A stretch of 64,000 bases of DNA from assembly GCA_025451235.1 (NCBI GenBank), contig JANWKT010000013.1, positions 81,317 through 145,316 on the forward strand, written 5' to 3'. Position numbers and translations under genes: made by a program. This document shows, in pieces, positions 43,558-59,986 of this stretch. The notes beneath the pieces were generated by a model. It saw nothing but the letters and a program-made list of their open reading frames with translations, was not told where the DNA came from and made no database searches. This DNA is from Flavobacteriales bacterium. GTDB taxonomy: Bacteria; Bacteroidota; Bacteroidia; CAIKAF01. Every line of letters starts with the position of its first letter. The first letter of the stretch is position 1.

Positions 43558-46410
43558 TCAAAATTTTCGTTTGATGGGAATGGTCAATATGACTTTGGTG
43601 CCCGAAGGTTGGTTGTTTTCATACAGGTCTTCATATATATATCCAAACTGACCTTTAAAAACGTTGCTCAGGATCTCAAAACGTTTATGAATTGCTTTAC
43701 CTGAGAAAGATTCATGGTCGGATCTTTGACGTAGTTTGATGGTTTTGGCTTGTTCTCTTCCAATTCCATTGTCTTCAATGGTACAGGTCAATACCTCTTT
43801 TAATTCAAAAGATATTTTCAGGTTTTTTGCTCCTTCCTTATGCAGGAGTCCATGTACCAATGCATTTTCAATAAAGGGTTGGATAAGAAGTGGTGGCAGC
43901 ATAATATCTTCTACATTCCTGGTATCAATGCTATAGTTCAGGTCTTTTTTATACCTCAACTTTTCCAGGGATAAATACAACTCCAACAATTTAATTTCCT
44001 GGTCAAAATCTATAAAATCTTTCTCCGAGTAATTTAAAGTCCTCCGCACCAGGTTCGAAAAAGTGGTAATATAGGAATAGGAATGTTCCACATCCCCTTT
44101 GAGGATCAGGTCTTGTATGGAGTTGAGCGAATTGAAAATAAAGTGAGGATTCATTTGCGATTGGATAGCAGTTAGCTTGGAGGCATTGAGCTCGCTGAGT
44201 TGCTTTGCCTTTTTATTCTGGATCTTTAACTGCCACCGATAAATGAAATATACGATGCCTAAAAATAAGACAACCACCGCAGCAATAAACCACACATGCG
44301 CATAAAAGGGTTTTTCAATAGTGAACGAGTAAGAGATCACCGGACTGAATACTCCCTGGTTCTCTGCTTTTAGTTGGAAGGTATATGTGCCCGGTGCCAG
44401 CGCATTGTAAATAACCTCATTTTGCTGGTAGGATTGGGTTTTCCATTCATCGTCGTATCCAACCAATTGATAATAGTAGGAAATGTTCTCCCGGTCTTTT
44501 AAGGTGGGTGAAGAAAAAGTAAATTGAATTTTACGTTCGTTGTTTTTGAAAATACCTTTTTGAAAATCGGTTATAGGCCGGTCGTTTACTTTTATTTCAT
44601 CGAAACGAACAACTGGCTGGGGAATATTGGACCGTACATGGTTGATCGCCACTTGCTGGACGCCTCCGGAGTGGCATACCCATAATGCTTCATCCTGAAG
44701 CGCAAAATCGATGATGCGATTTGACTTGAATCTATAGACCGAATGAATGGAAGTGATGAGTTTTCCACTCATGTCGAAACGGAAAAGTCCGTTGGTGGAA
44801 TTTCCGATCAGGGTGTTTTGATAAATGATGATTTTTTTAAGATCTTCCACTTTTCCGTTCACTATGGGTTGGATAGCACCTGTCACTTTTTTGTCTTCAA
44901 TAACAAGTACACCCTTCTTACGGGTATTGGCAAAGATCTTTCCATGGGAAAAGTAAAGGTCAGTCGGGAAAATATCGGTCCCCTCGTATAGGATCTTTTC
45001 TGATCTTCCGGAGGGAAGTAACACCAGCAATCCCTCGGCTGTTGAAGTATACAGACACTTATTTTCAGGGTTATATTCCAGCCAATAGACCCTTTGTTTG
45101 ATCTCGGGTACAGGTATTACAAAATAGGAATGAAGATTGTTCGGTTCTACCCTGATAATTCCATTATTGGTTCCCAGGTAAAACTCATCATTGGAAACGA
45201 TGGCCGCATCTTTTAAGGAGGATTCAGAAAGATCGATCACCTGACCTGTGTTTTTATTATATGCCCGGATGTATCCATTGTCAAACAGGATCATCTCACT
45301 ATTCTCATTTCCATAAATTCCTTTTATAGGATGGTTGCCCTGGTCGGCAATGATGTGGAGTTGACCGTGGAGATAATAGATGAGTTTTCCCTTAGAGGTA
45401 CCCAGGAAGAGACCCTGGACCGGATCGGCATACATGGCAGTAACAGGATCATCTCTGAAGGAATTCATTACATCCGGAATTTCCAGATCGGGAATAACGA
45501 GTACTCCCTTGTCGAAAGTGCTCAGCAGGATATTGCCTTCATGGTCTTTGTAAACATTTGAAATAAAATAATCCTGGTAGAAAAGGTAATTCCTTACCCC
45601 AGTCATCTGATCTTTAAAGAATGTCACCCCTGGAAAAGCACCTGCTGCCCAAACCTCGTTGCCGGTTTCATAGATCCTCGTGGACCCTTCTATTCCGGAT
45701 AGTCCAGTTGTTCCCATGGATGTTAATTGAAAAGTAGACTGGTTATAGTTATACAATGACCTTGTTCTTACATCAAATGCATGCGAATTTCCATGGATAT
45801 TGAAAAATTTTAAAACGGATTGGGAAGTTAATTGTCCTGGACCCATGTTTAAACCCTGCATAAAAATTTTTCCGCTGGAGTACATCAAAACCGAATCACT
45901 CCCAGTTAGGTGAAACTGAATTTCTTTTTTTGCATTGATAAAAGCAGGACCTAAAGAATGCCCATGGAGTGCTTGACGTTCCATCACCTTTCCATTTTTA
46001 TTCAACACGATCACTTTAGCTGCTCCAATCACTAACTCATCCTCCTGCCCAATTGCCAGACTTATATCTGCTTTTGCTTCATCTTTCTGCAGTTCGTATA
46101 CAAGTTTACATTCCATATCAACGATTTGGAATACCTGATTGTTGAGGTTATGACAATAGATCATTCCCTGCCGGTCTATTTCAAAATTGAAGACAGAATT
46201 GGTTTTGGCCTCATCACATTCTATTTTTTCATACGTATAATAATCATAATGATAAATCCCTTCATTGGTGGCAAACAAATAGTTCAATTCTTTGTCTTGT
46301 ATTACATCATAGATCTGGATCCCCCTGAATTCTTCTTCACCTAAGATGAAATAAGCAGGTTGCTGGGCATGGAGGTTGGCATTGAGCGATACCATGAATA
46401 GCAGAAACAA
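43558..46410 (-). CDS. Sensor histidine kinase (LytS-type) with periplasmic beta-propeller / Y_Y_Y sensor region
   Basis: 950 aa. TM 'VWFIAAVVVLFLGIVYFIY'. His_kinase motif 'MNPHFIFNSLNSIQDLI'. C-terminal HATPase 'IEDNGIG'. Confidence 0.85.
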   Translation of the reverse strand: MFLLFMVSLNANLHAQQPAYFILGEEEFRGIQIYDVIQDKELNYLFATNEGIYHYDYYTYEKIECDEAKTNSVFNFEIDRQGMIYCHNLNNQVFQIVDMECKLVYELQKDEAKADISLAIGQEDELVIGAAKVIVLNKNGKVMERQALHGHSLGPAFINAKKEIQFHLTGSDSVLMYSSGKIFMQGLNMGPGQLTSQSVLKFFNIHGNSHAFDVRTRSLYNYNQSTFQLTSMGTTGLSGIEGSTRIYETGNEVWAAGAFPGVTFFKDQMTGVRNYLFYQDYFISNVYKDHEGNILLSTFDKGVLVIPDLEIPDVMNSFRDDPVTAMYADPVQGLFLGTSKGKLIYYLHGQLHIIADQGNHPIKGIYGNENSEMILFDNGYIRAYNKNTGQVIDLSESSLKDAAIVSNDEFYLGTNNGIIRVEPNNLHSYFVIPVPEIKQRVYWLEYNPENKCLYTSTAEGLLVLLPSGRSEKILYEGTDIFPTDLYFSHGKIFANTRKKGVLVIEDKKVTGAIQPIVNGKVEDLKKIIIYQNTLIGNSTNGLFRFDMSGKLITSIHSVYRFKSNRIIDFALQDEALWVCHSGGVQQVAINHVRSNIPQPVVRFDEIKVNDRPITDFQKGIFKNNERKIQFTFSSPTLKDRENISYYYQLVGYDDEWKTQSYQQNEVIYNALAPGTYTFQLKAENQGVFSPVISYSFTIEKPFYAHVWFIAAVVVLFLGIVYFIYRWQLKIQNKKAKQLSELNASKLTAIQSQMNPHFIFNSLNSIQDLILKGDVEHSYSYITTFSNLVRRTLNYSEKDFIDFDQEIKLLELYLSLEKLRYKKDLNYSIDTRNVEDIMLPPLLIQPFIENALVHGLLHKEGAKNLKISFELKEVLTCTIEDNGIGREQAKTIKLRQRSDHESFSGKAIHKRFEILSNVFKGQFGYIYEDLYENNQPSGTKVILTIPIKRKF

Positions 46411-46597
46411 ATATGCTGCTGTATGCAGAAATGTTTTTGAATAGGTAGGTATGTGGGAATGGTGAGTGATGGGGGCTTAGATTTGTGTACAACGAAAGTA
46501 GGATTTTTTGAGGAATTCCTGGTTTGTCGTCCAGCTGATGTTTTTTTTAGTTCCCGTAGACGTTTTTATCTGATTTGGCTGTGGGCTCGTGTGGTTT

Positions 46598-46775
46598 GTT
46601 CCCGCAGATCTCGCAGATTTTCGCAGGCTTTTTTCTATCGTCACAATACCATTCGGCTGACTGCATTTCGCAGATCAGAGGCGCCACGGCGCCTCATCTG
46701 CGAGATAAGAGCAGCCGAATGGGAAGGCAGGGCAAAAGCCCTTCTTAAGCGAAAATCAGCGAGATCTGCGGGAAC
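46598..46775. repeat. MITE-like small element, copy A
   Basis: Terminal inverted repeats gttcccgcagatctcgcagattt (46598-46620) and aaatcagcgagatctgcgggaac (46753-46775). Internal palindrome tcgcagat..gaggcgcc..ggcgcctc..atctgcga. A second copy lies at 62150-62316. Confidence 0.7.
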
Positions 46776-46880
46776 AAAATGATTATTGCCAACTATGGAC
46801 ATATTCCAGTACAAGAGGTCCGAAGATTTTTAACACTCCTTCCGCCAATTATTTTTAATTTTCTGAACTATCCTGAAAGT

Positions 46881-47756
46881 CTAAAGCGCCTTATAAAAAC
46901 TCCTCTCCTTGATCTCATCCACTATATATTTTTTATCCGGAGCTTCCGTTTTATTCATATAGATCATTCTCCAATAATGAGGTAAGTTCCTATCCGGATA
47001 TACATTGCTCACGGGGATTTGATAGGGAAGTCCATGGAGGTTGAAAGATACCATCCAGTTGTTCGCATTGATATTTTTAATCGTGAGCTCATTGATGGCT
47101 TTGTCCAGATCTGCTTTAAATTGTTTTTTATCGACCAGCCCCAACAGTTGGGTTTCTGATTTCTCGAAAAATGTTTCCAAACTACCGGCACAGATCAATT
47201 CGATCACAATGGCCCGGATGGCTTCTTCTTTTCTTTTTAAATTTAACAATAGCTCCACTTTCCAATCGAGCATATAGGCTTGTTCCAGGCTTACATTGGT
47301 GGCACTCCCTTCGAAACCCCAATACCTGTAAACGGTATCGGCCTGGTCTAACCATTTCAACGCTTCTACATAATTCGAATCGATGGCATATAATCCTGCC
47401 AAAGCAGCTGCCGACTTATGCTTATAATTGGTATGGGGTTCCATTAAAGAACCTGTTTCATCGCTGTCTTTCAGATCTGAATCCAGGATCCTCTTGTACC
47501 AGGTCTTGGCTTTGTCGTATTCTTTCATTTGCCAATAGACCGTTGGGATATTAAAAAATGCATTTCCATAGGTATCGTATTTCTTGCCCACCTTATTTTC
47601 TACCATATAGGTCCAGACCGCAATGGTGGAATCCAGCTTCCCCTCATTATAAAAATCCAAGCCTTTGTTGAACATGCTGAGCCCAGTGGTATCCACCGTT
47701 TTTTGGGCAAAGGCGTAGGAGGTGATGAAGAGGAGGGAGAGGAAGATGGTTTTCAT
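46881..47756 (-). CDS. TPR-repeat secreted protein
   Basis: Signal peptide 'MKTIFLSLLFITSYAFAQ'. TPR-like helical repeats (W/Y-rich). Confidence 0.6.
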   Translation of the reverse strand: MKTIFLSLLFITSYAFAQKTVDTTGLSMFNKGLDFYNEGKLDSTIAVWTYMVENKVGKKYDTYGNAFFNIPTVYWQMKEYDKAKTWYKRILDSDLKDSDETGSLMEPHTNYKHKSAAALAGLYAIDSNYVEALKWLDQADTVYRYWGFEGSATNVSLEQAYMLDWKVELLLNLKRKEEAIRAIVIELICAGSLETFFEKSETQLLGLVDKKQFKADLDKAINELTIKNINANNWMVSFNLHGLPYQIPVSNVYPDRNLPHYWRMIYMNKTEAPDKKYIVDEIKERSFYKAL

Positions 47757-47841: not shown

Positions 47842-48267
47842 TTACCCTAGCATTTCCAAAATTTTCTTTGTTATTGACGGTGGGAATATGCTACAAGACT
47901 CCCAAGCTTCAAGTGTGATTCCTAGCTTTTTCAAATTAAGTTTGACATTATCTGATACGGTTTTGTAGTTTGATTCGCATCTTTTTGCTATTTCTTTTTT
48001 TGATAGGACAAATTCGATTTCCTCCCCTAGCGCCTGCTTTAGCCTAACAGTGTCCCAATATCTAAGCCATCTCATTTCATTCCATTTTTTATGTGGAATT
48101 TCATTTTGAAAAAATTTTATCCATTTAGATAAGGTAGGTCGAGTTATTCCGTAATCCTTGGCAATTGCTTCTTTTGATTTTCTGGTACTAACAAGTATGA
48201 AAAAAGAAATAATAAAAACGAGAAGAATTACTGCATTTTTGAATGAATCTGAGAGCTGCTTTTCCAT
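47842..48267 (-). CDS. Membrane-anchored helix-turn-helix protein
   Basis: N-terminal TM 'AVILLVFIISFFILV' then HTH 'KEAIAKDYGITRPTLSKWIKFF'. At the edge of the AT-rich island. Confidence 0.5.
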   Translation of the reverse strand: MEKQLSDSFKNAVILLVFIISFFILVSTRKSKEAIAKDYGITRPTLSKWIKFFQNEIPHKKWNEMRWLRYWDTVRLKQALGEEIEFVLSKKEIAKRCESNYKTVSDNVKLNLKKLGITLEAWESCSIFPPSITKKILEMLG

Positions 48268-48422
48268 ATAGTTTAATAATTTGCAACAAAGATAGATTCA
48301 GCCTAAAAATAGATCTAAACTTTTTGCAATATTCTCTGAATGACTATATAAATAATTGGTTGTGTGATATTTATATTCAACTAGCAGAATTAGCGTATTG
48401 TAACGAAGAATTATTTACCACG

Positions 48423-48474
48423 CTAGACCACCTTAGTCCGTTACGCTGCTAGGCTACCCAAGTCCGCTACGCTG
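48423..48474. repeat. Two adjacent imperfect 26-bp direct repeats
   Basis: ctagaccaccttagtccgttacgctg / ctaggctacccaagtccgctacgctg, followed by the palindrome ccgat-ttataaata-tcgg. Confidence 0.55.
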
Positions 48475-48625
48475 TTACCGATTTATAAATATCGGAACTT
48501 TAATTTAAACTACAATGATAGCGTGGCGTAAATTTCAAAATACGCCCAGGCGGGTTAGTAGCAGTACACTTTAAATTGGCCGTATCGCAGGTAATGTGGA
48601 AAATATACAGTTAGCTGTTGGCGTT

Positions 48626-49684
48626 TCATTTTTTAAAAGATTTTTGAAGTCTTTCAAATACTTTCTCCAAAAACAGATAGTTAACATCAAATTCATTTGA
48701 TACTGAGAATTCATAAAGTATATAATGATTCACCTCGTGCAAAATACTAATAGTGAATTGCATTGGATCAATGAATGCTTTTAATTCAATATCTTGATCT
48801 AACAATTTTGGTAAAACTATTTTGTTCCTAGTCATGAATTGTTGTAATCCATTGAAGTTTGAATGAATTTGTTCACTACATAGAACATAGTATGGTCGAA
48901 ATCTACTCATTTCAGCTCTTTCTTCAAGAACTCTAAAATCTGCTTTTTTATTTCCTAGAAACAAATCGTCCGCCCATCCAAAATCATTTTTTAAAAAATC
49001 CTTACCATATTTATTTCCGAGTGTCTCTTTAGCTTTATTAAGGTTTATCTCCGTTTTCTTTGGAAGGGGAGGAAACTTTAATGCTTTGTGGTTACTATTG
49101 TAGGCTGCTATCTTTCTTTGAGAATTTCTAATGGAATGCTCGTAGAATTTATTTGAAAGCTCAGCATTATTTTCAAGTGCCAAAACCAGTAGTATAATTG
49201 CATCTTCATACATTGCACGCCAAATAATCATAGCTCCATCTATATATCCACTTACTAATAAGTCAACAATTTCCTGAGCCCTTCTCAACATTAAGCCGTA
49301 TAAGGAAATGTTTATTTTTAAGGTACTGTCAATTCGCTTCCTATTTACCTTAACACTGATTTGCTCATACATATTTGCACAGGCTGTAATGTAAAGGATG
49401 AATGAAATGAAAGAGTCTCTATTATTCTGGACTATTGCACGTTGATTTTTGAAATGAACCTTTAAAAAGTCATCAATTTTAAAGTTGTGGTTTTCTAAAT
49501 AGGTATTTGTTAAAATATCCTCGTAGTCAGATATTATACCATCAAGATTTGATGCAATTTTCTGTGCTATTTCCTTTTCTGAAAGCTTGGATGTGCTAAT
49601 AAGATTAATTAATGTGCTATTAAGGATTTCGCTAAAGTCTTCAAAAAAGAGACCTTCTATTTCTACTTGTTTATATCGTCCCAA
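48626..49684 (-). CDS. Hypothetical protein (unknown family), last gene of 4-gene AT-rich operon
   Basis: 352 aa. No recognisable motif. Codon usage is AT-rich and unlike the flanking genes. Confidence 0.55.
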   Translation of the reverse strand: MGRYKQVEIEGLFFEDFSEILNSTLINLISTSKLSEKEIAQKIASNLDGIISDYEDILTNTYLENHNFKIDDFLKVHFKNQRAIVQNNRDSFISFILYITACANMYEQISVKVNRKRIDSTLKINISLYGLMLRRAQEIVDLLVSGYIDGAMIIWRAMYEDAIILLVLALENNAELSNKFYEHSIRNSQRKIAAYNSNHKALKFPPLPKKTEINLNKAKETLGNKYGKDFLKNDFGWADDLFLGNKKADFRVLEERAEMSRFRPYYVLCSEQIHSNFNGLQQFMTRNKIVLPKLLDQDIELKAFIDPMQFTISILHEVNHYILYEFSVSNEFDVNYLFLEKVFERLQKSFKK

Positions 49685-49709
49685 AATATAACCTTTTAAA
49701 TTGTGTTAT

Positions 49710-50480
49710 TCATTTTTTACCCTTTTCTAATAAAGGCAAAATAGTACTTTTTAATGTCAGCAGCATATACGGTCTTTTAACCTTTCCCTCTTTTAAATAT
49801 TTACTAATAACTCTTGTGACGCCTAAAAAGGATTCTTCAGTATGTTTTTTTGCGTTCAAATATTCCTTCCTTTTAATCTCCCTAGGGTATGACCAATTTG
49901 TACCATCAATATCAACATAAAAGCAATGTTCTTTAATTTGCTGAGCATTTGAAAGCCAATCTTTCTTCTCAATTATAGTTTTGCTCGGTGTTTTTGGTCC
50001 TAATTTTGATTGAATTTCTGCTGTTTGGGTTGCGTTTGCCATTGTCTGACCAATACGTTTAATGTAATTCTCAATCGATTCTCCTTCCCTAATCTGTAAA
50101 TTGTCTTTCTCTGTTAGAATAAAACTATTGATTTTACCATCGAAGTCAATTTTTTTAAGATTTCTGTGGATATGATTGAAAGCACTGGCAATATGAAGGC
50201 GAGTTTCGTGTATATTCTTATATCCTTTGACTTTTTTAAACCCGTAATCTATAAATTCTTTATCCCTAACCCCTATTAAGAAAAAAAATAAAGATTGCGC
50301 TTTTATTAATTCCTCAATCGTAAGCAACTTTAAAGCTGTTGCAAGCGGATATTTTTTCTTAGTTGCCAAGATATCGGCCGCATTGCTAAGATCTCTTGCA
50401 TTTGTATAAATAACCTCTAAGCCATCCTCGATAGTTTCTTCATCAAGCCTTAAAAGAATTTCATAACTAAGTTTCACCAT
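49710..50480 (-). CDS. AbiV-like (abortive infection) family protein, tentative
   Basis: N-terminal 'YTNARDLSNAADILATKKKYPLATALKLLTIEELIKAQSL' resembles the AbiV/Abi_2 N-terminal consensus (NA.rLl.DA..L...YpsA.aLailAiEE.gKa). Confidence 0.5.
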   Translation of the reverse strand: MVKLSYEILLRLDEETIEDGLEVIYTNARDLSNAADILATKKKYPLATALKLLTIEELIKAQSLFFFLIGVRDKEFIDYGFKKVKGYKNIHETRLHIASAFNHIHRNLKKIDFDGKINSFILTEKDNLQIREGESIENYIKRIGQTMANATQTAEIQSKLGPKTPSKTIIEKKDWLSNAQQIKEHCFYVDIDGTNWSYPREIKRKEYLNAKKHTEESFLGVTRVISKYLKEGKVKRPYMLLTLKSTILPLLEKGKK

Positions 50481-50506
50481 TACTTAAAAAATTAATATTT
50501 AAATAT

Positions 50507-51916
50507 TTAATATTTTGTTTTATTAGCATACCCATTAATTATTAGAGCAATCATAATCCAGCCAAAAAAGGTTTCACTTCCGACGAGCAATTTTATCTGG
50601 TTACTATATTCGGCTAAATTAACTCCACCTATTCGAACGAATCCAAAAATCGCATTATATAATCCGTCTATCCAGCTTTCGGAAATTCCCACCAAATAAT
50701 AAACAAAGGAGTAAGCAATAATGACCAATATTGAGTTATAAATAAGTCGATGGGGCTTCTCTCCAAATCCCCATAAAAGATAATTACATATGCCCAAGAA
50801 ACTCAAACGAATTTGTTGAATGCATCTAAAAAACTCCCTTTTCAATCGTAATAGTGTGCCTCGATTTTGTCTTCTGTTCTTACCTAGTTTATAATGGCCC
50901 CAAAAGGTATTAATACTTGCAATTGTGGAAAACAGTTCGAATTTACGTTCAAAGTAATGTGATTCCTTTGTTCGCTTTCTGTCTCCCTGTCTTGAATAGG
51001 CTATTCTGAATTTGACAAAATTGTCTGCAATATATCGATAAGTGCTTGCTTTAGTAGAGTAAAAATCTCTCTTCATAGGAATATATTTGACTTCCTCAAT
51101 ATAACTATTTTGCAAATCAATTCGATTCATTGAAATCTCGTCAAACGTAACATATCTTAATTCACTATTCTTACAAGTCATGCTCCACAAATTCCCATTA
51201 TGAAAATGCGTAGCGTATATTTCTGAACTATTTTCCAGTTTCAGATTTTGAAAATCACATTCAACAAGATTTAGGGAGCTTAATTTCCCATCATTAAGTC
51301 TAATATTGTGTGCATGAGCAAAATATATACTATGCATTATATTGCCGTGATCTGGACCTTCAATAGTCAAAAAATCCAAATTGGTAAAGTCAAGATTTCG
51401 TCTATTTATTCTGTACCCTCGTGTAATAGTTAAGCCACCAAGTTTTAGCACATAGTGACCCATCATTTTCCATTGGCAAAGATCTGGAACATCTGGAGCA
51501 TGTCCTGAACCATATAGCAACTTAGTATTCTTGCCCGGTAGGAAATGTCTAGTTTTATACTTTCTTTGACCCCATAAGATATATGGCGTAAATCTTTGAT
51601 AAATATGATTTTTTTCTTTAGCTCTCCTTTCGACTTCTTTTGCAGCCTGCGTTGATTGTGGATGAACAAAATAATATCGATCGTCTGGATGATTTTCCGA
51701 GAAATCGATTAAATATTTATCATATTCCCCATGAAATAATTCTCCAGGATTTCTGATTTTCACAAGGGTGTCAATCAGAAAATTATTTTCACTAAGCCAA
51801 TCGCCAAAACCCGGAAGATTTTTTTCGAAGGACATGAATAGTTTCGGCAAATCATTCTTTTCTCTCCAAAGATTGAATTCATCAGTAGGAAGGTCCCATA
51901 GTTCTTGAGGAGTCAT
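50507..51916 (-). CDS. Pentapeptide-repeat protein fused to C-terminal 2-TM pore-like (Ion_trans_2-like) domain
   Basis: 469 aa. Central pentapeptide-like repeats ('NLDFTNLDFLT', 'LSSLNLVECDFQNLKLENS', 'MNRIDLQNSYIEEV'). C-terminus has TM1 'LIYNSILVIIAYSFVYYLVGI', pore-helix-like 'WIDGLYNAIFGFVRIGGVN' (compare K-channel 'F.DALYFS.VT.TTVGYGD') and TM2 'FFGWIMIALIINGY'. Confidence 0.55.
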   Translation of the reverse strand: MTPQELWDLPTDEFNLWREKNDLPKLFMSFEKNLPGFGDWLSENNFLIDTLVKIRNPGELFHGEYDKYLIDFSENHPDDRYYFVHPQSTQAAKEVERRAKEKNHIYQRFTPYILWGQRKYKTRHFLPGKNTKLLYGSGHAPDVPDLCQWKMMGHYVLKLGGLTITRGYRINRRNLDFTNLDFLTIEGPDHGNIMHSIYFAHAHNIRLNDGKLSSLNLVECDFQNLKLENSSEIYATHFHNGNLWSMTCKNSELRYVTFDEISMNRIDLQNSYIEEVKYIPMKRDFYSTKASTYRYIADNFVKFRIAYSRQGDRKRTKESHYFERKFELFSTIASINTFWGHYKLGKNRRQNRGTLLRLKREFFRCIQQIRLSFLGICNYLLWGFGEKPHRLIYNSILVIIAYSFVYYLVGISESWIDGLYNAIFGFVRIGGVNLAEYSNQIKLLVGSETFFGWIMIALIINGYANKTKY

Positions 51917-51944
51917 TTAGCTGATTCTAACTTATTAATTAAGA

Positions 51945-52568
51945 CTATCTAATGCGTTTTTCGATAGGCATTCGAACTATTCTGGCCACACCTTTGTCAA
52001 ACTTGGCTAGAGAAATATTGGGAAAGGTAAGATAATCTTCCTTTCCTTCATTCTCATCGGTAATGCTACTATCATTTATCAGAGATTTTCCTTTGGTTTT
52101 AAAAGCACGATTATAATAAACCAAGCTGTCCCTGTTAGAATGAATCATTACCAAGATATTTTCCTTGGGAACTAGCTTTTCTATTTTAAAGTAACAGTCC
52201 TTAAAAAAAGGTCCATTTTCTTTGTATGTAAAGTCAATATTGCCATTAGGAGCTAGTTGTATTTGGTCCCCAACCAACATCTGAATATTTATTTCAATAT
52301 TATTAACCGTATTTTTTGATTGATTTGTCACTAAATAATTAGTTGTATAGTCCTGATTACTAATGGTTGGTTCTATTTCTACAATATCCAACGAACTTTT
52401 ATAATACCGTTCAGTGAAATATGGAGTTGTTACAACAAGTTGGACAATTGCTACAATTAGTGCAAGAATTGACAATATAAGTGAAACGTTAATTTTATTG
52501 TTCTGATTCTTTTCATGAAGTGCATCAGAAGTTTCAAATTTTATATTGGTCTTTTTCTTTTTACTCAT
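51945..52568 (-). CDS. Hypothetical single-pass membrane protein
   Basis: 207 aa. Basic N-terminus 'MSKKKKTNIKF' then TM 'VSLILSILALIVAIVQLVV'. Confidence 0.5.
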   Translation of the reverse strand: MSKKKKTNIKFETSDALHEKNQNNKINVSLILSILALIVAIVQLVVTTPYFTERYYKSSLDIVEIEPTISNQDYTTNYLVTNQSKNTVNNIEINIQMLVGDQIQLAPNGNIDFTYKENGPFFKDCYFKIEKLVPKENILVMIHSNRDSLVYYNRAFKTKGKSLINDSSITDENEGKEDYLTFPNISLAKFDKGVARIVRMPIEKRIR

Positions 52569-52702
52569 AGCCTACAGCTAACGTAACCGCATTTGCCCAC
52601 GGGCCGTTATTTAAAGGTAATAAACTTTACTCATTTCTCAAATGATAGCAGAGTGTAAATTATTCAAATACACCCAAGCGGTTTATGTTCTTAAAACATC
52701 AA

Positions 52703-53830
52703 TTAATCCGGAATGAAAGGCCTGTGGGCAGAATGGGAGTTAGGCAAAGTGAATTCTTGTTGTAATTTATCTGAGTAATCCCGAAGTCTAATAATCGATT
52801 TCAAAACAAATTTATTATCCGGCTCAACTGAACGCCAGAAGTGCAAATACCCAAACAATCTTTCAAGATATATTGGGTCAAATGAATTAATATGTTTTTG
52901 ATGTTCGAACAATCCTTTCGAAAGGACATAATGAACATTTTTTCTAACTTCTCGCTTAGCTTTTTTCGGAACAGTCATTGTTCCATTGGATATCGAAATC
53001 CCTGTAATAATTTTTTGATTTTTCTCACCAAGCAATTTTGTTTTGGGCTTATTTATATTAAATCCTTCTTCTTCGGTAATTTCTTCAATATATGTTGTCA
53101 TTTTAATTGGTATTGCACCCCCAGAAAAAGTAAAATCATCAGCATACCTGGTATAATTTAGTTTAAATTTATTTGCTAGTCCATTTAATCTTTGATCAAG
53201 TCTTTTTGCTATAATATTGCTTATCGCCGGACTTGTAGCTGCTCCTTGAGGTAGAGCTCGATTCAAACAACAAATTGCGGCTAAGTAGTAGGAGATTCTT
53301 TTTGTGTACCCCAAATTCCGAAAAATTGCAATTACTCGATTTATTTTTATGGATGGAAAAAAATTTTGAATATCCATTTTTAATACAAATTTGGTATTGA
53401 GATGTTCTTTAGCATTGTCAACAATTGAAGTATTTTTGATAAATCCCTTGGAACATTTATGTAATGGTTGGTGAATTAGGATGTTCTCGTAAATCCACTT
53501 TTGAGCATGCAATAAAACAGGATAAGGCGCTGAAATTATTCTTTGGCCTCCATTTCTTTTTGGAATCTCAAAAGTATAATAAAAGCTATTGGATTTCATC
53601 ACTATACTCGAAAGCACTTCCCTCTGAATGCCCAGTAATGAGGCTAAATGGTTAAAATCCAAAATTATTACGGTGTTATTCGAAATGAGTTTTTGCACAT
53701 AAATTGATAGTGCCTTTTGAGTTTTTTCACCTCTTACATTTTTCGAGATGAAATCAACCCATTTTTCGATTTGTATTTTTTTATCTTCTAGCATGGTAAT
53801 AAAAAATGAGGATGGGAAAACTACTTTCAA
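52703..53830 (-). CDS. Retron-type reverse transcriptase
   Basis: Collinear with Ec86 RT. 'RNGGQRIISAP' (RT1-2). 'KMDIQNFFPSI' (compare Ec86 NIDLEDFFPSL). 'LPQGAATSPAISN' (compare LPQGAPSSPKLAN). 'YTRYADDFTFSG' (YADD catalytic box). Retron thumb 'QKIITGISIS' (compare RKVTGLVIS). The annotated start is TTG; an in-frame ATG at ~53794 (MLEDKK...) is more likely. Confidence 0.9.
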   Translation of the reverse strand: MKVVFPSSFFITMLEDKKIQIEKWVDFISKNVRGEKTQKALSIYVQKLISNNTVIILDFNHLASLLGIQREVLSSIVMKSNSFYYTFEIPKRNGGQRIISAPYPVLLHAQKWIYENILIHQPLHKCSKGFIKNTSIVDNAKEHLNTKFVLKMDIQNFFPSIKINRVIAIFRNLGYTKRISYYLAAICCLNRALPQGAATSPAISNIIAKRLDQRLNGLANKFKLNYTRYADDFTFSGGAIPIKMTTYIEEITEEEGFNINKPKTKLLGEKNQKIITGISISNGTMTVPKKAKREVRKNVHYVLSKGLFEHQKHINSFDPIYLERLFGYLHFWRSVEPDNKFVLKSIIRLRDYSDKLQQEFTLPNSHSAHRPFIPD

Positions 53831-53974
53831 TGAAATTTATTCATACTACTAAATCCTACAACGTAGATTTAGTAGTGCAGTTCTGTTAGGAACTTCACTA
53901 GTGCCTTTTTCAGGTACTAGTGTGGTTAACCACAGCATTAATAAATGAGGCGAATACACCTCAATGTGCTAGTT
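53831..53974 (-). ncRNA. Candidate retron msr/msd non-coding RNA region
   Basis: A 144 nt gap (up to ~180 nt if the RT starts at 53794) between the WH gene stop and the RT. It holds hairpins actactaaatc-N10-gatttagtagt (53845-53876), cactagtgcc-ttttt-caggtactagtg (53896-53922) and the palindrome tggttaacca (53923-53932). The a1/a2 repeats were not resolved by eye. Confidence 0.5.
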
Positions 53975-54337
53975 TCATTTCCCATCCTCAATGTTTTTAA
54001 AAATTTCTTTATCCAAAGTTTTTCGATTTGGTATGTATAACTCATTTATACCCAAAATAGGTTGTTTCATGTTTTCAGGAATTAGTTTCCAGTATTTGAC
54101 GTTTTCACGTAAAAATATATATTTTCTATTCCCAAATATCCAATTGCGCCCATATTCGTTAAGGGTTATTTGATTACCACTAATAACTATTAACCCATTA
54201 TCTTCAAATTTTTGTATTGTTCTCGCAAGTTGAAAAGGAGATAGCTGGTATTTTTCATGAAAAAAATACAAATCCAAACTGTTTTGGGCATATAATTCTT
54301 TGAGGAACTCAATATCCTCGCTTAATAATTCTATCAT
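53975..54337 (-). CDS. Small winged-helix-like DNA-binding protein (retron accessory)
   Basis: 120 aa. 'LSPFQLARTIQKFEDNGLIVISGNQITL' has the HTH + wing pattern. A 4-bp overlap (ATGA) with the upstream PRTase-like gene suggests translational coupling. Confidence 0.6.
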   Translation of the reverse strand: MIELLSEDIEFLKELYAQNSLDLYFFHEKYQLSPFQLARTIQKFEDNGLIVISGNQITLNEYGRNWIFGNRKYIFLRENVKYWKLIPENMKQPILGINELYIPNRKTLDKEIFKNIEDGK

Positions 54338-55191
54338 ATCCGTCTAAAAAGTGTTTTTCTTTGAATCCCCCCTTTATAAAAGGGCCACCAAAATATTGGG
54401 AATACATTATTCGGAACATTATTGGCTTCGAAGCCAAATAGGGCTTCTGACCTTTTATATCCGAAATTGGGGAGTTTTCTACTCCCAATTTTATTCTTTA
54501 ATTTACTTTCAAGATTCTCCATGGATTTTTTAGCTGAAGGCCTGTTTTCTGCCTCCATTATCTCACTAATCCCTTTCTTCAACCAAAAAACTGAGTAATA
54601 TTCCATGTACAATTTATCTAATACATCTTTGGAAAACTCCATAGCGGCTAGGCTAATAGTTCTAACGGTTACATTGGTAAGTTGGCGTTTTTCTATTGTT
54701 GAACGCATGTATTTTACTTTTCGCTCAATTGTATCACCTGTTCCAATGAAGTCGTCCGTTAGTATAACATTTGAATTGTCTGGAATTTCATTAGCTCCAA
54801 TCGGTAACGAGTTAAAAAAATTAGATTCCTTCCAATTCATAGAGAATTTATTTTTTAGACATTGTATAATACTTTGGGATCCGTCTGGGTTTTTATCGTC
54901 ACACGTAGCAATAAGAAAAGTACTTTCTGAAGTTAAACCCCAATTTGTTTCGATTTGAGCTGCAATGCTCTTACCTGCCTCATTTAATGTTTGTCCATCA
55001 ACGAAGGAAAAGTTCTTTATTAGGAATTCAATTAAATCTTTTTGGTCTTTATTATCCGATAGACACCATAATTCAAAGAGTGCTTCTGGCTCATATGAAA
55101 GCCACTTGTACTCTTTGTGTAATTTAGTTAAAGTGACAAAATCGTTAACGTCAATTTTGCCAGATGCTCTATTTACAATCTCTTCATTCAT
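54334..55191 (-). CDS. Phosphoribosyltransferase (PRTase)-like protein (retron effector candidate)
   Basis: 285 aa. PRPP-binding-type motif 'VILTDDFIGTGDTI' (compare 'VLLVDDVITTGST'). Confidence 0.65.
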   Translation of the reverse strand: MNEEIVNRASGKIDVNDFVTLTKLHKEYKWLSYEPEALFELWCLSDNKDQKDLIEFLIKNFSFVDGQTLNEAGKSIAAQIETNWGLTSESTFLIATCDDKNPDGSQSIIQCLKNKFSMNWKESNFFNSLPIGANEIPDNSNVILTDDFIGTGDTIERKVKYMRSTIEKRQLTNVTVRTISLAAMEFSKDVLDKLYMEYYSVFWLKKGISEIMEAENRPSAKKSMENLESKLKNKIGSRKLPNFGYKRSEALFGFEANNVPNNVFPIFWWPFYKGGIQRKTLFRRI

Positions 55192-55339
55192 TCTTTATCA
55201 TTTTGCCTAACTACGGATTACCGTAATCATACAAACGTTTACAAACCTCTATTTTCGTTTGTAAGCACTTGTATAATGGCTTTCCTATATCAATAGTATA
55301 GAATAAAGAGCAAATATAAAAGCAGGGAGGCATCCGTAT

Positions 55340-55379
55340 TTTCCCGGATACCTCTACCTAATGTTGGGTATCCGGGAAA
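55340..55379. promoter_or_regulatory. 13-bp perfect inverted repeat upstream of retron operon (operator or terminator of the upstream gene)
   Basis: tttcccggatacc-N14-ggtatccgggaaa. A Bacteroidetes-type -7 box candidate TAtaTTTG (minus strand, complement of 55311-55318) lies between it and the PRTase start. Confidence 0.4.
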
Positions 55380-55422
55380 TATGGATGGGATCCAGGCCGG
55401 GGCGGCTTGGGAATAGAAGTTG

Positions 55423-56634
55423 CTATTCAGGACAGTTGGCTACACAAACCTCCTGCGTGATGCCGTAAAGAATGGTGAGCTTACCGGTCATATATTTTTG
55501 ACTGGTAGCCAGGTAGCAATCCAAAGATAAGGTACCATCATTTTCCAAAATGGTTCTTTTAAACTTAAATTCGGCTAAACCTTTGGTAGAGGTGTAGTAG
55601 CAACTAAATATAACAGATTCAGGATTTTTTAGTTTTGTCTTTACTACAAAATTAATTTTATAAGGACTTTTTTGGTTGGGGAATTTTTGCGTGCCTATCA
55701 GCTCACCCTCTAATGTAGTCACTTTTAACCAGTTTTTTGGCAGGTTAATTTCAATGTTGCATTCATACGTCATGTTAATGATCCTGGTGACGGTCACTGG
55801 ATCTTTTTCAATGGCTGGAATGTTTATAGGAATAATGTTATAACCCTCATCCAAATCAACAATCACAAACGCTTTATAGGGATCTTTTCTTTTGAAAGTT
55901 AATGTATACCTTTCACCATACTCGATCTTTTTTCCTTCTATTCTGTCGTTTATTAATACCAGATTTTCCGAAAAGGAGATATCTCTTACTTTTACTTTGT
56001 CTCCATTGTTTCTAAATGGGTTGGTCTTTAACTCAAAGAATACGGTTACAGTACTGTCCGATTGTCCCAGTAATTCGAGATACGGGATATCGTTCGTTAT
56101 TTTTATGCATTCCGTCCAGGCATTTAATGAATTTTCAACATCTTCACTGCGGGTATAGGTTTCGTTTAATTCAATTTTTTCATTGTAACTAAGTGAATAA
56201 TCTATTTTGGTTTTATACTTTTTAAATATACTCTTCACTTTTGATTTATTGGAACCCCAATTAAATGCACCAAAATCAGGAACACTAAACCCTGCCGAGG
56301 AACTTCTCCTGTTTTGAAGATCTTCCTGTGAGGAGGATTCATACAGGTAATTCAGTTTTTCTAAATAATCCTTATCCGTTTTCAAGGATAGTTTCTGGTA
56401 AACAACGGAGAAAGCCGCATCACAGGAACCTATAAATGCTTTATTGGTTTCAAATGATAAGGAGTCTGATACCTGGTTTTTGTTGGATCCGTCCTCCGGC
56501 ATGATTACAAACTCTACAAATGCGTCTTTAACAACCGAATCTTGAATTGCCTTTTCATCCTTTTTTACCGTCTTGGAGCCACAGCTGGATAAAAATGCAG
56601 TTAATACAAGGATCAAGAAAAAATAATTTTTCAT
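55423..56634 (-). CDS. Hypothetical lipoprotein
   Basis: Leader 'MKNYFFLILVLTAFLSSCGSKTV'. 403 aa. AT-rich codon usage. Confidence 0.6.
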   Translation of the reverse strand: MKNYFFLILVLTAFLSSCGSKTVKKDEKAIQDSVVKDAFVEFVIMPEDGSNKNQVSDSLSFETNKAFIGSCDAAFSVVYQKLSLKTDKDYLEKLNYLYESSSQEDLQNRRSSSAGFSVPDFGAFNWGSNKSKVKSIFKKYKTKIDYSLSYNEKIELNETYTRSEDVENSLNAWTECIKITNDIPYLELLGQSDSTVTVFFELKTNPFRNNGDKVKVRDISFSENLVLINDRIEGKKIEYGERYTLTFKRKDPYKAFVIVDLDEGYNIIPINIPAIEKDPVTVTRIINMTYECNIEINLPKNWLKVTTLEGELIGTQKFPNQKSPYKINFVVKTKLKNPESVIFSCYYTSTKGLAEFKFKRTILENDGTLSLDCYLATSQKYMTGKLTILYGITQEVCVANCPE

Positions 56635-56819
56635 TTTTCATTTTTTAAAATTGCTCTAGTTGTCCGGCTTTAAGTGAAGCCCCCGTTTTTTTAGGTGGGT
56701 TCTGATCTCCACTTTGTTGGTTGTGATAAGGATCTATTCGATGTGAATAGTTGGTAGTATAAGACAACAAGGTAACTGAATTACTTTCTATTGGGTCATG
56801 ATCCAAACAATTTAATCAC

Positions 56820-57055
56820 AACTGTAACATACGAACGCTGCTGTAAGGCTTCGACCAAACTGTATTAGGTTTGATCTCAACGAAGTACGAAATGGTACGA
56901 GCCTACGAACTACGAACAAAGCAGTGGAGCTTCGACCGAGTTGTTACGGGGTTAACCACAACGAAGTACGAACCTATACGAACATACGAACTACGAATAA
57001 GGTTAGCATCGGTTCGTAGTTCGTAGGTTCGTATGTTTTGTTCGTACTTCGGTGA
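56820..57055. repeat. Composite 'tacgaac' repeat region: two ~45 bp direct repeats plus a ~36 bp imperfect hairpin
   Basis: Direct repeats ggcttcgaccaaact..caacgaagtacgaa / agcttcgaccgagtt..caacgaagtacgaa. Hairpin cgaagtacgaacctatacgaacatacgaactacgaa-N15-ttcgtagttcgtaggttcgtatgttttgttcgtacttcg. Confidence 0.6.
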
Positions 57056-57062
57056 AAACAAA

Positions 57063-58007
57063 TTAAAATTGACTGGAAAACGTAAATCCTACTCCCATAT
57101 CCGTTTTGGAGGCGGGATAGGTATAAAGTGACCAACTGGTAGTTTTGTTTTTCTTTTTGTTGATGAAATAGTTCACCAGGTTCCAGGTACTGATGATGAC
57201 CGTAGATGTTCCCACCCCTATGTTCACCATCGATACCGTTTTCAACTCTTCATTCGTGGTATAATATCCCCAATAATCATAGGTCTCCGCTGGATACATG
57301 GCTGCTCCCAAACTAATTTGGCCTATGCCTGATGCAATCCCAATAATAGGGAGGGCCAAACTCTTGCTTCCATTCGCTAATTGAATTCCATTGATCGTGG
57401 TCAAAGAAATATTTGCCGCAGAGAACACCGAAGAAGATACTCCATAAGCAGGGGTTACATGGTTGTTCTGCTGATCGGGCAAAGGTCCGTAAGCCGGTTG
57501 GATCATGGCACATTCATCTTCGGTCAATCCACTGTTCTTGATCCATAGATCTACCAAAGGATCATGCATGTCTTTGAGTTTTTCGTATTGATAGTTTGCA
57601 TTGATATACTCTGCCACATGTCTGCCTGCCGTTTGTTCCACCAAATAACCCACTGCACAGATCCTTCCATTTTTATCTATAAAACAGGGAATGCGCTCTT
57701 GCTTGTCATAGTTGCGGGGAAATTCTTCACGGACAATGTATTTTCCCAATAAGTTCAACATATATTTCCTCCTCCATTGCATTTGAGGAGAGAGGTTTTC
57801 TACCGGGCGGGAAGAAAGTTCATTTAATACATAGAGCAAATGTGTCCGGATACGCAGGTCTTCATTGACCGTTGAGGTAGGTGATATACCGAATTTTTGT
57901 TTGTAGCTGATATCACCGATCACAGGGTTGATGGGGTTTTCAGCGAGAAGGGTGGTGCTCATGGGGGCCATGAGGCATACGGAGAGGAGAAAGATGAGTT
58001 TTTTCAT
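57063..58007 (-). CDS. Hypothetical secreted protein
   Basis: Signal peptide 'MKKLIFLLSVCLMAPMSTTLLA'. C-terminal Gly/Ser-rich beta-strand region. Confidence 0.55.
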   Translation of the reverse strand: MKKLIFLLSVCLMAPMSTTLLAENPINPVIGDISYKQKFGISPTSTVNEDLRIRTHLLYVLNELSSRPVENLSPQMQWRRKYMLNLLGKYIVREEFPRNYDKQERIPCFIDKNGRICAVGYLVEQTAGRHVAEYINANYQYEKLKDMHDPLVDLWIKNSGLTEDECAMIQPAYGPLPDQQNNHVTPAYGVSSSVFSAANISLTTINGIQLANGSKSLALPIIGIASGIGQISLGAAMYPAETYDYWGYYTTNEELKTVSMVNIGVGTSTVIISTWNLVNYFINKKKNKTTSWSLYTYPASKTDMGVGFTFSSQF

Positions 58008-58184: not shown

Positions 58185-58713
58185 CTTTTGCTCTGATTCG
58201 CTACCGCGAGGGTTCTACTTTTTGTCTTGACACAAAAAGTAGACAAAAAAGTCAAGGCTGCATAAGTCATTGATGTAAAACTACGGAACGCTCCGGTCGT
58301 TCACCCAAACTCGTTTACGCTGTTACCCAAATTTTTTCAAAATTTGGACAGCTGGACCTCAAACATGGGTTCACTACCCTGCACTTATCCTTGTTTTACT
58401 ATCCATGCCTTATGAGGCCGTTCCCCCTTCCCGCTAGCCACAGTATCTGGTATTTTCTGGGTAAAAAAGGATTGCACCGGAAATTGCAAGTAAGTGATAC
58501 CTTGGCTAACCCACTATCTTCCAGATAATGTAGCCTGTGGGAGGCGAAACCCGAAATGGCGCGAACTTTGGGTTTTGCGGCCTATGCGGCGGTTGGGCAA
58601 AGGTGAAAGCAAAAGCCCAAAGTTAGCATTTCGGGGCTCCTTTCTTTTGTTTACTTTTCTTTGGAGAAGCAAAGAAAAGTAAAACCCTCGCGGTAGCGAA
58701 ACAAGAGCAAAAG
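58185..58713. repeat. ~530 bp non-coding segment bounded by 30 bp inverted repeats
   Basis: cttttgctctgattcgctaccgcgagggtt (58185-58214) and its reverse complement aaccctcgcggtagcgaaacaagagcaaaag (58683-58713). A third, split copy lies at 60029-60099. No ORF >75 aa inside. Confidence 0.55.
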
Positions 58714-58870
58714 CACTACACCGCATGCGAACTAGGGAGCCCAAACACGCAGCTTTAGCTGCGAGAAACCACTACACCCCGTAGGCGGGTGAGAATCACC
58801 CACTTTATCAGCACTTATTAACAGAAAAAAAAATATTGACCGATCTTATTAACTTTGCATTCTGAAATAT

Positions 58871-59986
58871 TTGAAAACTCGTTCAATGCAATTTCAGTTA
58901 AAAACCCCCGCATTACTGGTCCTTGAAGATGGAACAGTATTTACCGGCCGGGCCTGCGGCAAAACAGGTACCACCACCGGAGAGATCGCTTTTAATACCA
59001 GTATGACCGGCTATCAGGAAATTTTTTCTGATCCCTCCTATTTTGGTCAGATCCTCGTGATGACCGGTGTTCATATTGGTAATTATGGTATTAAAAAAAA
59101 TGAAGTGGAAAGTGGGTCCACTAAAATTGCAGGTATGGTCTGCAAATCTTTTGCTGATTATCCTTCACGCAAAAGTGGGGATGGTTCCCTCCAGCAAGAT
59201 TTTGAAAAAAACGGTTTGATCGGTATATCGGATGTAGATACCCGTGCACTTGTACGGCATATCCGTCATAAAGGAGCGATGAATGCTATCATCTCCAGTG
59301 AGAATTTAAATGTGAATCAACTCAAGGCGCAATTGAGAGATGTGCCAAGTATGAAAGGATTAGAGCTGAGCTCGAAAGTTTGTACCAAAGAACCTTATTT
59401 CTATGGTGATGAAAAATCCCCCTATAAAGTAGCAGTACTCGACCTGGGTATTAAACAAAATATTTTACGTTGCTTGGCCGACAGAGGCTGTTATTGTAAA
59501 GTATTCCCCATGGATGCCACGGTAGAAGAAATGGAAAAATGGAACCCGGATGGATATATGATCTCTAATGGTCCCGGTGATCCAGAAACCATGACAGGAG
59601 TGATTGCCGAAGTGAAAAAATTGGTAGACCACGATAAAAAAGTGTTCGGGATCTGCTTGGGTCACCAGGTATTGAGCTGGGCCATGGGGGTTCCTACTTA
59701 TAAAATGTTCAATGGACATAGGGGATCCAATCACCCGGTAAAAAATTTAAAAACGGGAAGGGGAGAGATCACTTCACAAAACCATGGTTTTGTATCCGAT
59801 GAAAAACTCATTAGCGAAAATAAGTTAGTTGAAGTAACCCATCAACATTTAAATGATCATTCAGTTGCCGGGATCAAGGTAAAAGGAAAACCTGTTTTTT
59901 CGGTTCAATATCATCCCGAAGCATCAGCTGGCCCGCATGATAGCAGGTATTTGTTTGATGAGTTTGTGGAGTTGATGAAGAAGTAG
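58871..59986 (+). CDS. carA: Carbamoyl-phosphate synthase small (glutamine amidotransferase) subunit
   Basis: 'LVLEDGTVFTG', 'GICLGHQVL' catalytic Cys and 'VQYHPEASAGPHD'. The true start is likely the Met at 58886. Confidence 0.92.
   Translation: MKTRSMQFQLKTPALLVLEDGTVFTGRACGKTGTTTGEIAFNTSMTGYQEIFSDPSYFGQILVMTGVHIGNYGIKKNEVESGSTKIAGMVCKSFADYPSRKSGDGSLQQDFEKNGLIGISDVDTRALVRHIRHKGAMNAIISSENLNVNQLKAQLRDVPSMKGLELSSKVCTKEPYFYGDEKSPYKVAVLDLGIKQNILRCLADRGCYCKVFPMDATVEEMEKWNPDGYMISNGPGDPETMTGVIAEVKKLVDHDKKVFGICLGHQVLSWAMGVPTYKMFNGHRGSNHPVKNLKTGRGEITSQNHGFVSDEKLISENKLVEVTHQHLNDHSVAGIKVKGKPVFSVQYHPEASAGPHDSRYLFDEFVELMKK

Follow-up and report, generated by a model that had tools for sequence, protein, structure and literature searches.

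A predicted type III-A retron in an AT-rich, probably acquired defence block next to carA in a Flavobacteriales genome

Retrons of types III-A1 and III-A2 encode a phosphoribosyltransferase (PRTase)-like effector and, downstream of it, a separate winged-helix protein, and their non-coding RNA (ncRNA) lies right before the reverse transcriptase (RT) gene (Mestre et al. 2020, PMC7736814). Retron-Eco11, which belongs to type III-A3, has its winged helix fused to the PRTase (~410 aa) and a conserved C-terminal tail (PMC12746101). Retron RTs are defined by NAxxH, a VTG-type triplet and YxDD, and retron PRTases by a phosphoribosyl pyrophosphate (PRPP) loop and a PNN motif (PMC7736814, PMC12746101). 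Within type III-A, anti-phage activity that depends on the RT, the ncRNA and the PRTase has been demonstrated only for Eco11, in which a phage replication helicase acting on the multicopy single-stranded DNA (msDNA) is the trigger, PRPP is depleted and the infection is aborted (PMC12746101). Here we examine a stretch of 64,000 nt (hereafter the window) from a Flavobacteriales bacterium (assembly GCA_025451235.1, contig JANWKT010000013.1, positions 81,317 to 145,316) and describe an AT-rich minus-strand block in it, the core of which is predicted to be a complete type III-A retron made up of three adjacent genes and an RNA. The original prediction had taken the region for a defence island; defence genes are present, but the retron, which is their main content, went unrecognised. 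We consider that the block (~47.8-55.4 kb) is very probably a horizontally acquired anti-phage defence island that has the type III-A retron as its core and occupies a slot between a tetratricopeptide repeat (TPR) protein gene and carA.

For defence-island biology the island is ordinary, a clear example of an established type. It provides a Bacteroidota type III-A retron that appears complete, with the ncRNA, the a1 and a2 repeats and a predicted branching G mapped to the base. Relatives of type III-A2 have been reported as strong genome-editing scaffolds (PMC12746101), and the annotated III-A1/A2 retron described here is compact (~2.5 kb) and usable directly in experiments.

Proteins and RNA of the retron

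The first gene of the retron (54334-55191, minus strand) encodes a PRTase-like effector of 285 aa that matches the PADLOC profile PRTase_III-A (1.1e-87) and Pfam PRTase-CE (5.4e-22). Its PRPP loop, VILTDDFIGTG, spans residues 142-152, and a G244-x15-PNNxxP motif follows that is kept in 7/7 relatives; compared with the published motif of 67_3 and Eco11, Gx14PNNxP, the spacing is off by one residue on each side. No solved relative of the PRTase is detectable by sequence. The second gene (53975-54337, minus strand), which shares 4 nt with the end of the PRTase gene, encodes a winged-helix DNA-binding accessory protein of 120 aa (PADLOC WH_III-A, 3.7e-17), and a homologue occupies the same position in loci L008, L009, L010, L024, L027, L029 and L030. 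The third gene (52703-53794, minus strand) encodes a retron RT of 363 aa that matches PADLOC RT_III-A at 5.8e-133 (441 bits), NCBIfam retron_St85_RT at 251 bits against a cut-off of 235, and Pfam RVT_1. The defining features of retron RTs are all present, as NAKEH127, YADD217 and ITG263, along with LPQG181. The start codon is probably the ATG at 53794; a longer open reading frame (ORF) with a TTG start at 53830 (52703-53830) overlaps a2 and is probably not used, and database protein P0121 matches the 363-aa form with 100% identity. The nearest solved RT by sequence is that of Ec86 (2.6e-44), and the RT of the window shares 73% identity with a Flavobacterium protein and 69% with a protein from a Saprospiraceae metagenome-assembled genome (MAG).

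A metagenome scan and RT homologues yielded seven other loci with the same order of PRTase, winged helix, gap and RT, including loci in Flavobacterium, Saprospiraceae, Tenacibaculum and Emticicia genomes. Each of the seven has different neighbours and no integrase alongside. In every locus examined, the cassette thus stands as a bare unit of three genes plus RNA without an integrase beside it, and it appears to move in that form.

The ncRNA, msr-msd, was located at 53799-53992 on the minus strand by an inverted repeat, the predicted fold, covariation and a covariance model. The gap between the winged-helix and RT genes (144 nt) is bracketed by a 19-nt inverted repeat (I25; 53978-53996 and 53801-53819) that overlaps both flanking genes. 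Within it, a1 (53989-53978) abuts the stop codon of the winged-helix gene (53977-53975), and a2 (53819-53808) sits shortly before the start codon of the RT gene at 53794. The minus-strand fold has a minimum free energy of -71.9 kcal/mol (z = -7.7), with a closing stem around six hairpins (53962-53947, 53934-53921, 53920-53898, 53896-53877, 53875-53846 and 53842-53832). A TAGC right after the a1 stem is invariant in 8/8 loci, and G53969 within it is the predicted branching G. Thus the locus has an msr-msd adjacent to the RT gene and on the same strand, closure by a1 and a2, and a conserved unpaired G after a1, as retron RNAs do.

Aligning the gaps of the eight loci (the window and the seven relatives) gave a consensus structure of 59 pairs, 18 of which have changes on both sides. 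In this alignment 92.7% of the cells are paired, compared with 38-54% when the partners were slid, and the observed values were attained in 0/500 shuffles. A covariance model trained on the seven relatives, with the window left out, was then applied to the window and to three more loci. It recovered 53799-53992 on the minus strand at 194.8 bits (E = 2.9e-57), whereas the opposite strand gave 23 bits, and it found a 37-bit copy upstream of a more distant RT in L012. Rfam gave no match at gathering score in the block, and Rfam 15 had no match to the retron RNA; an E-value scan of 47-59 kb with Rfam returned only a sub-threshold DUF805 motif, described below, and noise. A candidate ncRNA site upstream of the PRTase gene (55192-55422, fold z = -5.1) was also considered and rejected: it consists of the terminator of a lipoprotein gene and a promoter region, and the covariance model is blank there.

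An RT from a group II intron, a diversity-generating retroelement or an Abi/DRT system would be the alternative to a retron RT, and in NCBIfam the group II, Drt2, Drt3a and Drt4 models do match the protein, though weakly and with scores far short of their cut-offs. The retron models score far higher, both in PADLOC and, above the cut-off, in NCBIfam; the NAxxH and VTG-like motifs are present, the covarying msr-msd RNA carries a1/a2 repeats, and no intron or other known RNA family was found in the block by Rfam. These results effectively refute a non-retron origin of the RT, to which we assign next to no probability.

Relation to described retrons and expected mechanism

With its PRTase and winged helix encoded separately, the predicted retron has the architecture of types III-A1 and III-A2. 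The likeness extends to the position of the winged-helix gene downstream of the PRTase gene, to the ncRNA right before the RT gene and to the PADLOC III-A profiles, which match all three proteins of the window. These two subtypes are told apart by the RT clade (2 or 9) and the protein cluster (113_1/742_1 or 113_4/1121_1). The Ec86-like RT (clade 9) and the rank order of the PADLOC profiles hint at III-A2; the subtype of the retron in the window is not fixed by them, and its RNA, as noted, has no counterpart in Rfam 15.

Retron-Eco11 is alike in its PRTase-like effector with a PRPP loop and a retron-specific PNN motif, in an ncRNA that overlaps the stop codon on the effector side and the 5' end of the RT gene, and in an unpaired G after the a1/a2 stem. 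By analogy, an msDNA-dependent complex, PRPP depletion and abortive infection would also be expected in common. It differs in the fusion of the winged helix to the PRTase, whereas the winged helix in the window is a separate protein of 120 aa. Retron-Eco1/Ec86, of type II-A3, has the closest solved RT and shares the general msr-msd logic, but its effector is nucleoside deoxyribosyltransferase-like rather than a PRTase, and its ncRNA is of another type.

The mechanism that we propose is drawn by analogy from Retron-Eco11 and Ec86. The PRTase gene, the winged-helix gene, msr-msd and the RT gene would be transcribed as a minus-strand operon, and the a1/a2 stem would set the 2'-OH of G53969 beside the 3' end of the msd template. 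The RT would then make branched msDNA on the msd part, primed from this 2'-OH. The RT, the msDNA and the PRTase, probably with the winged-helix protein, would form a complex that restrains the PRTase; a phage factor acting on the msDNA would free the PRTase activity, the PRPP and nucleotide pool would run down, and the infection would be aborted.

Composition, synteny and acquisition of the block

In a 1-kb profile of the window, the GC content drops from ~0.40 to 0.32-0.34 across 48-55 kb, and a finer profile places the block edges near 47.85 kb and 55.2-55.4 kb. The GC content at third codon positions (GC3) is 0.27-0.31 (mean 0.284) in the eight minus-strand genes at 47842-55191 and averages 0.399 (sd 0.042) in the other 48 ORFs of the window (Mann-Whitney p = 4.8e-6). 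The AT-rich stretch that the original prediction had given as ~10 kb is therefore real, with a discontinuity in both GC and codon composition, but it is ~7.5 kb long, not 10.2 kb, and 10 minus-strand ORFs of at least 100 aa were counted where 11 genes had been claimed. The rest of the insert between the TPR gene and carA has ordinary composition: it consists of a lipoprotein gene (55423-56634, GC3 0.376), a repeat-rich gap (56635-57062) and a gene for a 314-aa membrane protein (57063-58007, GC3 0.483), both genes on the minus strand and neither of them AT-rich. A terminator-like hairpin with a 10-bp stem and a T tail (55327-55354, minus strand) ends the lipoprotein transcript, and the local GC content rises at 55200-55600; it is at this terminator, 55354-55327, that both the retron unit and the AT-rich block end on their upstream (right) side.

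In all hosts examined, the retron module has a lower GC content than its flanks (0.285-0.316 compared with 0.33-0.455). Because low GC is intrinsic to the retron cassette in each host, it neither dates the transfer nor points to its source, and an old arrival and a recent one cannot be told apart by it.

The genes around the block include those for a thiolase (36007-37179), a histidine kinase (43558-46410), the TPR protein (46881-47756, minus strand) and CarA (58871-59986). The kinase, TPR and carA genes had been described as chromosomal-type flanks; they are as described, but the kinase and TPR genes lie inside a lineage-specific segment of 21.5 kb (37250 to ~58800) that is missing in the nearest relatives by blastn and tblastn. 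This segment contains genes for a WG-repeat protein, two type IX secretion system (T9SS) cargo proteins, a LytTR response regulator and the histidine kinase, a copy of a miniature inverted-repeat transposable element (MITE)-like sequence, the TPR gene and the insert. The thiolase gene and carA are 266 bp apart in L014 and L016, compared with ~21.5 kb in the window, and blastn homology with these two loci ends at 37249 and restarts at 58805-58884. In a JGI relative, the left side of carA holds a 118-aa gene and a 1486-aa T9SS gene. The right side of carA (a 229-aa gene, DUF2480 and YqeY) is syntenic in the relatives and the window. Since three close relatives each carry something different in the slot, the interval between the thiolase gene and carA is a turnover hotspot in this lineage, and it is documented here as such. 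The nearest carA relatives have 85-88% protein identity and ~79% DNA identity, and the relatives used for the absence test are distant (~79% DNA identity, or of another family, as is L003).

The adjacency of the TPR gene and carA was also examined in other genomes. In L003, a distant Chitinophagaceae MAG, the two genes are adjacent and divergent, 100-175 bp apart; they have the same relative orientation in the window, with 11.1 kb between them. This supports an insertion between the TPR gene and carA in the window. As a synteny anchor, the TPR gene has distant relatives only, with at most 62% identity.

The RT relatives are patchy over several named Bacteroidota lineages, the two mentioned above being 73% and 69% identical to the RT of the window, whereas matches to carA from named Bacteroidota are only ~63-66% identical, a pattern consistent with horizontal spread. 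Scans of viral contigs for the msr core, the PRTase and a channel-like protein encoded downstream of the retron found nothing, and plasmid searches gave distant matches only.

The block might instead be ancestral and have been lost from the relatives, its low GC reflecting an intrinsic composition of defence genes rather than recent transfer. The AT-rich retron modules of all hosts examined fit this explanation, as do the many rearrangements to be expected between genomes of ~79% DNA identity and the entirely different neighbourhood of carA in more distant relatives. Three contents of one slot in three close relatives are, however, typical of a turnover hotspot, the RT relatives are patchily distributed and closer than the carA matches from named Bacteroidota, and the retron context is unrelated in each genome. 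We therefore regard ancestry as unlikely and acquisition as very probable.

The route of arrival was considered in the light of repeats and mobility genes. No tRNA, integrase or transposase gene was found in the 64-kb window by a tRNA search and by Pfam, NCBIfam and PADLOC scans of the ORFs, in agreement with the original prediction. The idea of a defence island without an autonomous mobility gene also held: an AbiV-family gene and a predicted complete retron are both in the block, which the closest available relatives lack and which has no mobility gene or tRNA. The repeats that had been proposed as island boundaries are all present in the window, but they are not supported as such: a 12-mer and a 10-mer, neither of them significant, are all that the gaps have in common, the repeats lie off the compositional edges, and the MITE-like pair brackets carA. 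The direct repeat at 48431-48479 is weak (23 nt, 74% identity). The gap at 56635-57062 contains an 81-nt tandem duplication (56830-56991, 70%) and, reaching to 57034, inverted repeats of 22 nt that are rich in TACGAAC. Upstream of carA lies an element of 530 bp (58185-58713) whose terminal inverted repeats measure 39 nt (92%); it is single-copy in the window, with a GC content of 0.44-0.50, and contains the motif ACGCTGTTACC. In the gap before carA, this motif forms an inverted pair in L014, L015 and L017 and is single in L016. The MITE-like copies (46564-46779 and 62076-62321, ~220-250 bp) have 30-nt terminal inverted repeats, GTTCCCGCAGATCTCGCAGA, and are in direct orientation; the second lies inside a separate 2.4-kb insertion to the right of carA, and the terminal repeat sequence is absent from all 30 relative loci searched. 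Spurious ORFs (46453-46782 and 62061-62366) run through both copies.

When the gaps were compared with each other by blast (about six pairs), two shared words emerged: a 12-mer, TACGCTGTTACC (48468 and 58316; E = 0.015), and a 10-mer (47783 and 56993; E = 0.025). Given the number of pairs, neither is significant. The 12-mer is the basis of another explanation, namely site-specific integration at ACGCTGYTACC, with the direct copies at 48469 and 58317 as attL and attR and an integrase lost since. The 12-mer stands in direct orientation and occurs nowhere else in the window, ~26 nt around its copies are roughly 77% alike, and the same core is found in the carA-upstream gap of L014-L017, which would be the 'empty' site. 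However, when one mismatch was allowed, at least two matches appeared in 7/100 shuffles; the left copy is 600 nt into the AT-rich block, so that the AT-rich gene of a helix-turn-helix (HTH) protein falls outside, the right copy lies 3 kb beyond the block, the gene outside the left copy is that for the TPR protein and not the thiolase gene as in L014, and the 64 kb contain no integrase gene. Integration of this kind is quite improbable, somewhat more so than ancestry, and ACGCTGYTACC is given low weight as a candidate att-like or REP-like core because it is off both compositional edges. Arrival would more readily have occurred by recombination-mediated exchange at a variable locus; we favour exchange over self-mobilisation because there is no integrase, tRNA or supported att repeat.

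Several points weigh against an acquired island whose retron acts as proposed above. The low GC is a property of the retron module in all hosts examined and is neither a clock nor a signature of the donor. The TPR gene and carA are adjacent in only 1/5 of the TPR loci whose upstream flank extends over several kb, and, given nearest relatives of ~79% DNA identity, deletion there is an alternative to insertion here. The mechanism is borrowed from type III-A3 (Eco11), in which the winged helix is fused to the PRTase, and no published mechanism or structure for III-A1/A2 retrons with a separate winged helix was found in the literature searched. In addition, no terminator-like site lies between the RT gene and the four genes that follow it, so that these may be co-transcribed with the retron.

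Genes downstream of the retron and other features of the window

Five further minus-strand genes make up the AT-rich block. Four of them form a run with gaps of 25-28 nt, which is headed by a gene for a 207-aa protein (51945-52568) with one N-terminal transmembrane helix (residues 28-46) and no family match in Pfam, PADLOC, NCBIfam or PHROG. It is followed by genes for a 469-aa channel-like protein (50507-51916), a 256-aa AbiV-family (HEPN) abortive-infection protein (49710-50480) and a 352-aa DUF5677 protein (48626-49684). The closely spaced genes downstream of the RT gene may be one operon. The leftmost AT-rich gene (47842-48267, GC3 0.303) encodes a 141-aa protein with an N-terminal transmembrane helix (residues 8-26) and HTH motifs, which matches Pfam CENP-B_N at 24.3 bits (cut-off 21.2) and HTH_23 at 24.2 bits (cut-off 24.6), both at ~2.5e-5; this membrane-anchored protein is a probable regulator.

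The AbiV-family protein matches Pfam HEPN_AbiV at 1.9e-18 (67.5 bits) and NCBIfam AbiV_defense at 52.9 bits, where the cut-offs are ~27 bits in both databases. It resembles AbiV from Lactococcus, a HEPN RNase (bioRxiv 10.1101/2024.05.05.592566), in these two matches. In contrast to that protein, it is larger (256 aa), and a regular-expression search found no canonical Rx4-6H motif, the hallmark of active HEPN RNases; furthermore, the flanking gaps of 25-26 nt leave no obvious space for an abiV2-type RNA antitoxin. The DUF5677 protein matches Pfam DUF5677 at 1.7e-22 and PHROG 27456 at 3.5e-17. In one study, DUF5677 was enriched near defence loci and was assayed, and it is not listed among the protective ORFs (PMC12632615). 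A single-sequence AlphaFold2 model of the protein in the window is all-helical, with a predicted local distance difference test (pLDDT) score of 41.6, which is too poor for use. That the DUF5677 and AbiV-like proteins might be paralogues was considered and rejected on comparison.

The 469-aa protein combines, according to fold and profile matches, a pentapeptide-repeat beta-helix with a two-transmembrane-helix, K-channel-type pore. Pfam Pentapeptide_4 matches it below the cut-off, and the two transmembrane helices are C-terminal. Its relatives form 16 other clusters (P0242-P0257) with at most 46% identity, which carry Ion_trans_2. The pore filter is degenerate in the window protein (FVRIGGVN) compared with the TLGxGD consensus of the relatives; this probably accounts for the missing Pfam Ion_trans_2 match, and the channel may no longer be selective. 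An AlphaFold2 model based on the relatives' alignment (pLDDT 87, predicted template-modelling score 0.80) had HalA (9nyi_A) as its best Foldseek match in the PDB (E = 7.4e-9, template-modelling scores 0.35/0.46, 324/333 residues aligned). By sequence the link to HalA is weak: a profile of the channel family matched it at E = 0.0016 over profile positions 222-469, and a single-sequence search gave no match.

In Hailong, as outlined in a review, HalA is a DNA-gated (single-stranded DNA) transmembrane ion channel with a DNA-binding crown in the cytoplasm, and the system requires an adjacent nucleotidyltransferase, HalB (Tan et al. 2025, via PMC13434031). The modelled window protein is alike in its cytoplasmic beta-helical domain and K-channel-type transmembrane pore, and unlike in an extra N-terminal domain of ~130 aa. 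No HalB or other nucleotidyltransferase was found beside the channel gene by Pfam, PADLOC, NCBIfam and PDB sequence searches, the neighbours being the transmembrane, AbiV-HEPN and DUF5677 proteins. In addition, a full-length channel homologue from Aeromonas sits among housekeeping genes and has no neighbours in common with the window. Because of the missing HalB partner, the housekeeping context of this homologue and the degenerate filter, we call the protein HalA-like in its modelled architecture and not a member of Hailong. That a HalA-like channel should lack a HalB partner is a minor open lead.

The retron and the downstream genes could also be parts of one larger system, for example with the HalA-like protein as a second effector held closed by msDNA. 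This explanation draws on HalA as the top fold match in the PDB, on the gating of HalA by single-stranded DNA reported in the same review, on the lack of a HalB-like nucleotidyltransferase beside the channel, and on the location of the genes on the same strand as the RT gene with no terminator-like site between. Against it, none of the five long loci among the retron relatives (L010, L024, L027, L029 and L030) has a match to any of the five downstream genes, the retron already has a PRTase effector of its own, the Aeromonas homologue of the channel stands among housekeeping genes, the match to HalA by sequence is weak, the filter of the pore is degenerate, and a gap of 134 nt separates the RT gene from the next gene. 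We give a larger system a slimmer chance than any of the above alternatives for the origin of the block. Hardly less remote is the narrower idea that the HalA-like protein is an orphan DNA-gated channel held closed by the retron msDNA or another DNA signal; if true, an msDNA-gated orphan channel would join two mechanistically separate defence families, retrons and Hailong. The transmembrane protein, the channel, the AbiV-like protein and the DUF5677 protein could also constitute an undescribed four-gene defence operon. Since the retron relatives lack them, the five downstream genes are, on present comparisons, not parts of the retron but independent accessory or defence cargo.

Upstream of the block, the product of the lipoprotein gene at 55423-56634 has a Lipobox-like LSSC, and neither this protein nor that encoded at 57063-58007 had a family match in Pfam, PADLOC and further profile scans. 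Directly upstream of the lipoprotein start at 56634, the DUF805 RNA motif RF03081 was detected at 56649-56717 on the minus strand (40.1 bits, E = 6.7e-6 on 500 nt; gathering score 51.1); this sub-threshold motif may be a cis-regulatory leader. A 22-bp hairpin at 56976-57034 stands directly after the stop codon of the 314-aa gene, and the duplication next to it, single-copy in the window, is full of TACGAAC heptamers. The duplication and hairpin could be a terminator or a protein-binding array. Elsewhere in the window, between two plus-strand ORFs, Rfam Atu_At1, a small RNA of Rhizobiales, matched 21243-21349 on the plus strand (61.2 bits; gathering score 60); in a Bacteroidota host, this is a false-positive match unless a structured element is shared.

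The relatives of the TPR protein (48-62% identity; L001-L007) are scattered over Cytophagaceae, Chitinophagales, Flavobacteriales, Hymenobacter and Aureispira with differing neighbours, which suggests that the TPR gene at 46881-47756 is itself patchily distributed. The two T9SS cargo genes at 39083-42367 (minus strand) have a GC3 of 0.30-0.31 despite normal overall GC and may be of foreign origin. A second variable slot lies right of carA (59987-62374) and holds a 530-aa T9SS-tailed gene (60424-62016) and the MITE-like copy; in the relatives, this slot is a 5-bp gap in L014 and contains a different, 338-aa T9SS gene in L020. A 43-nt repeat in this slot (60287-60329 and 61972-62014, 84% identity) suggests the remnant of an earlier T9SS gene end.

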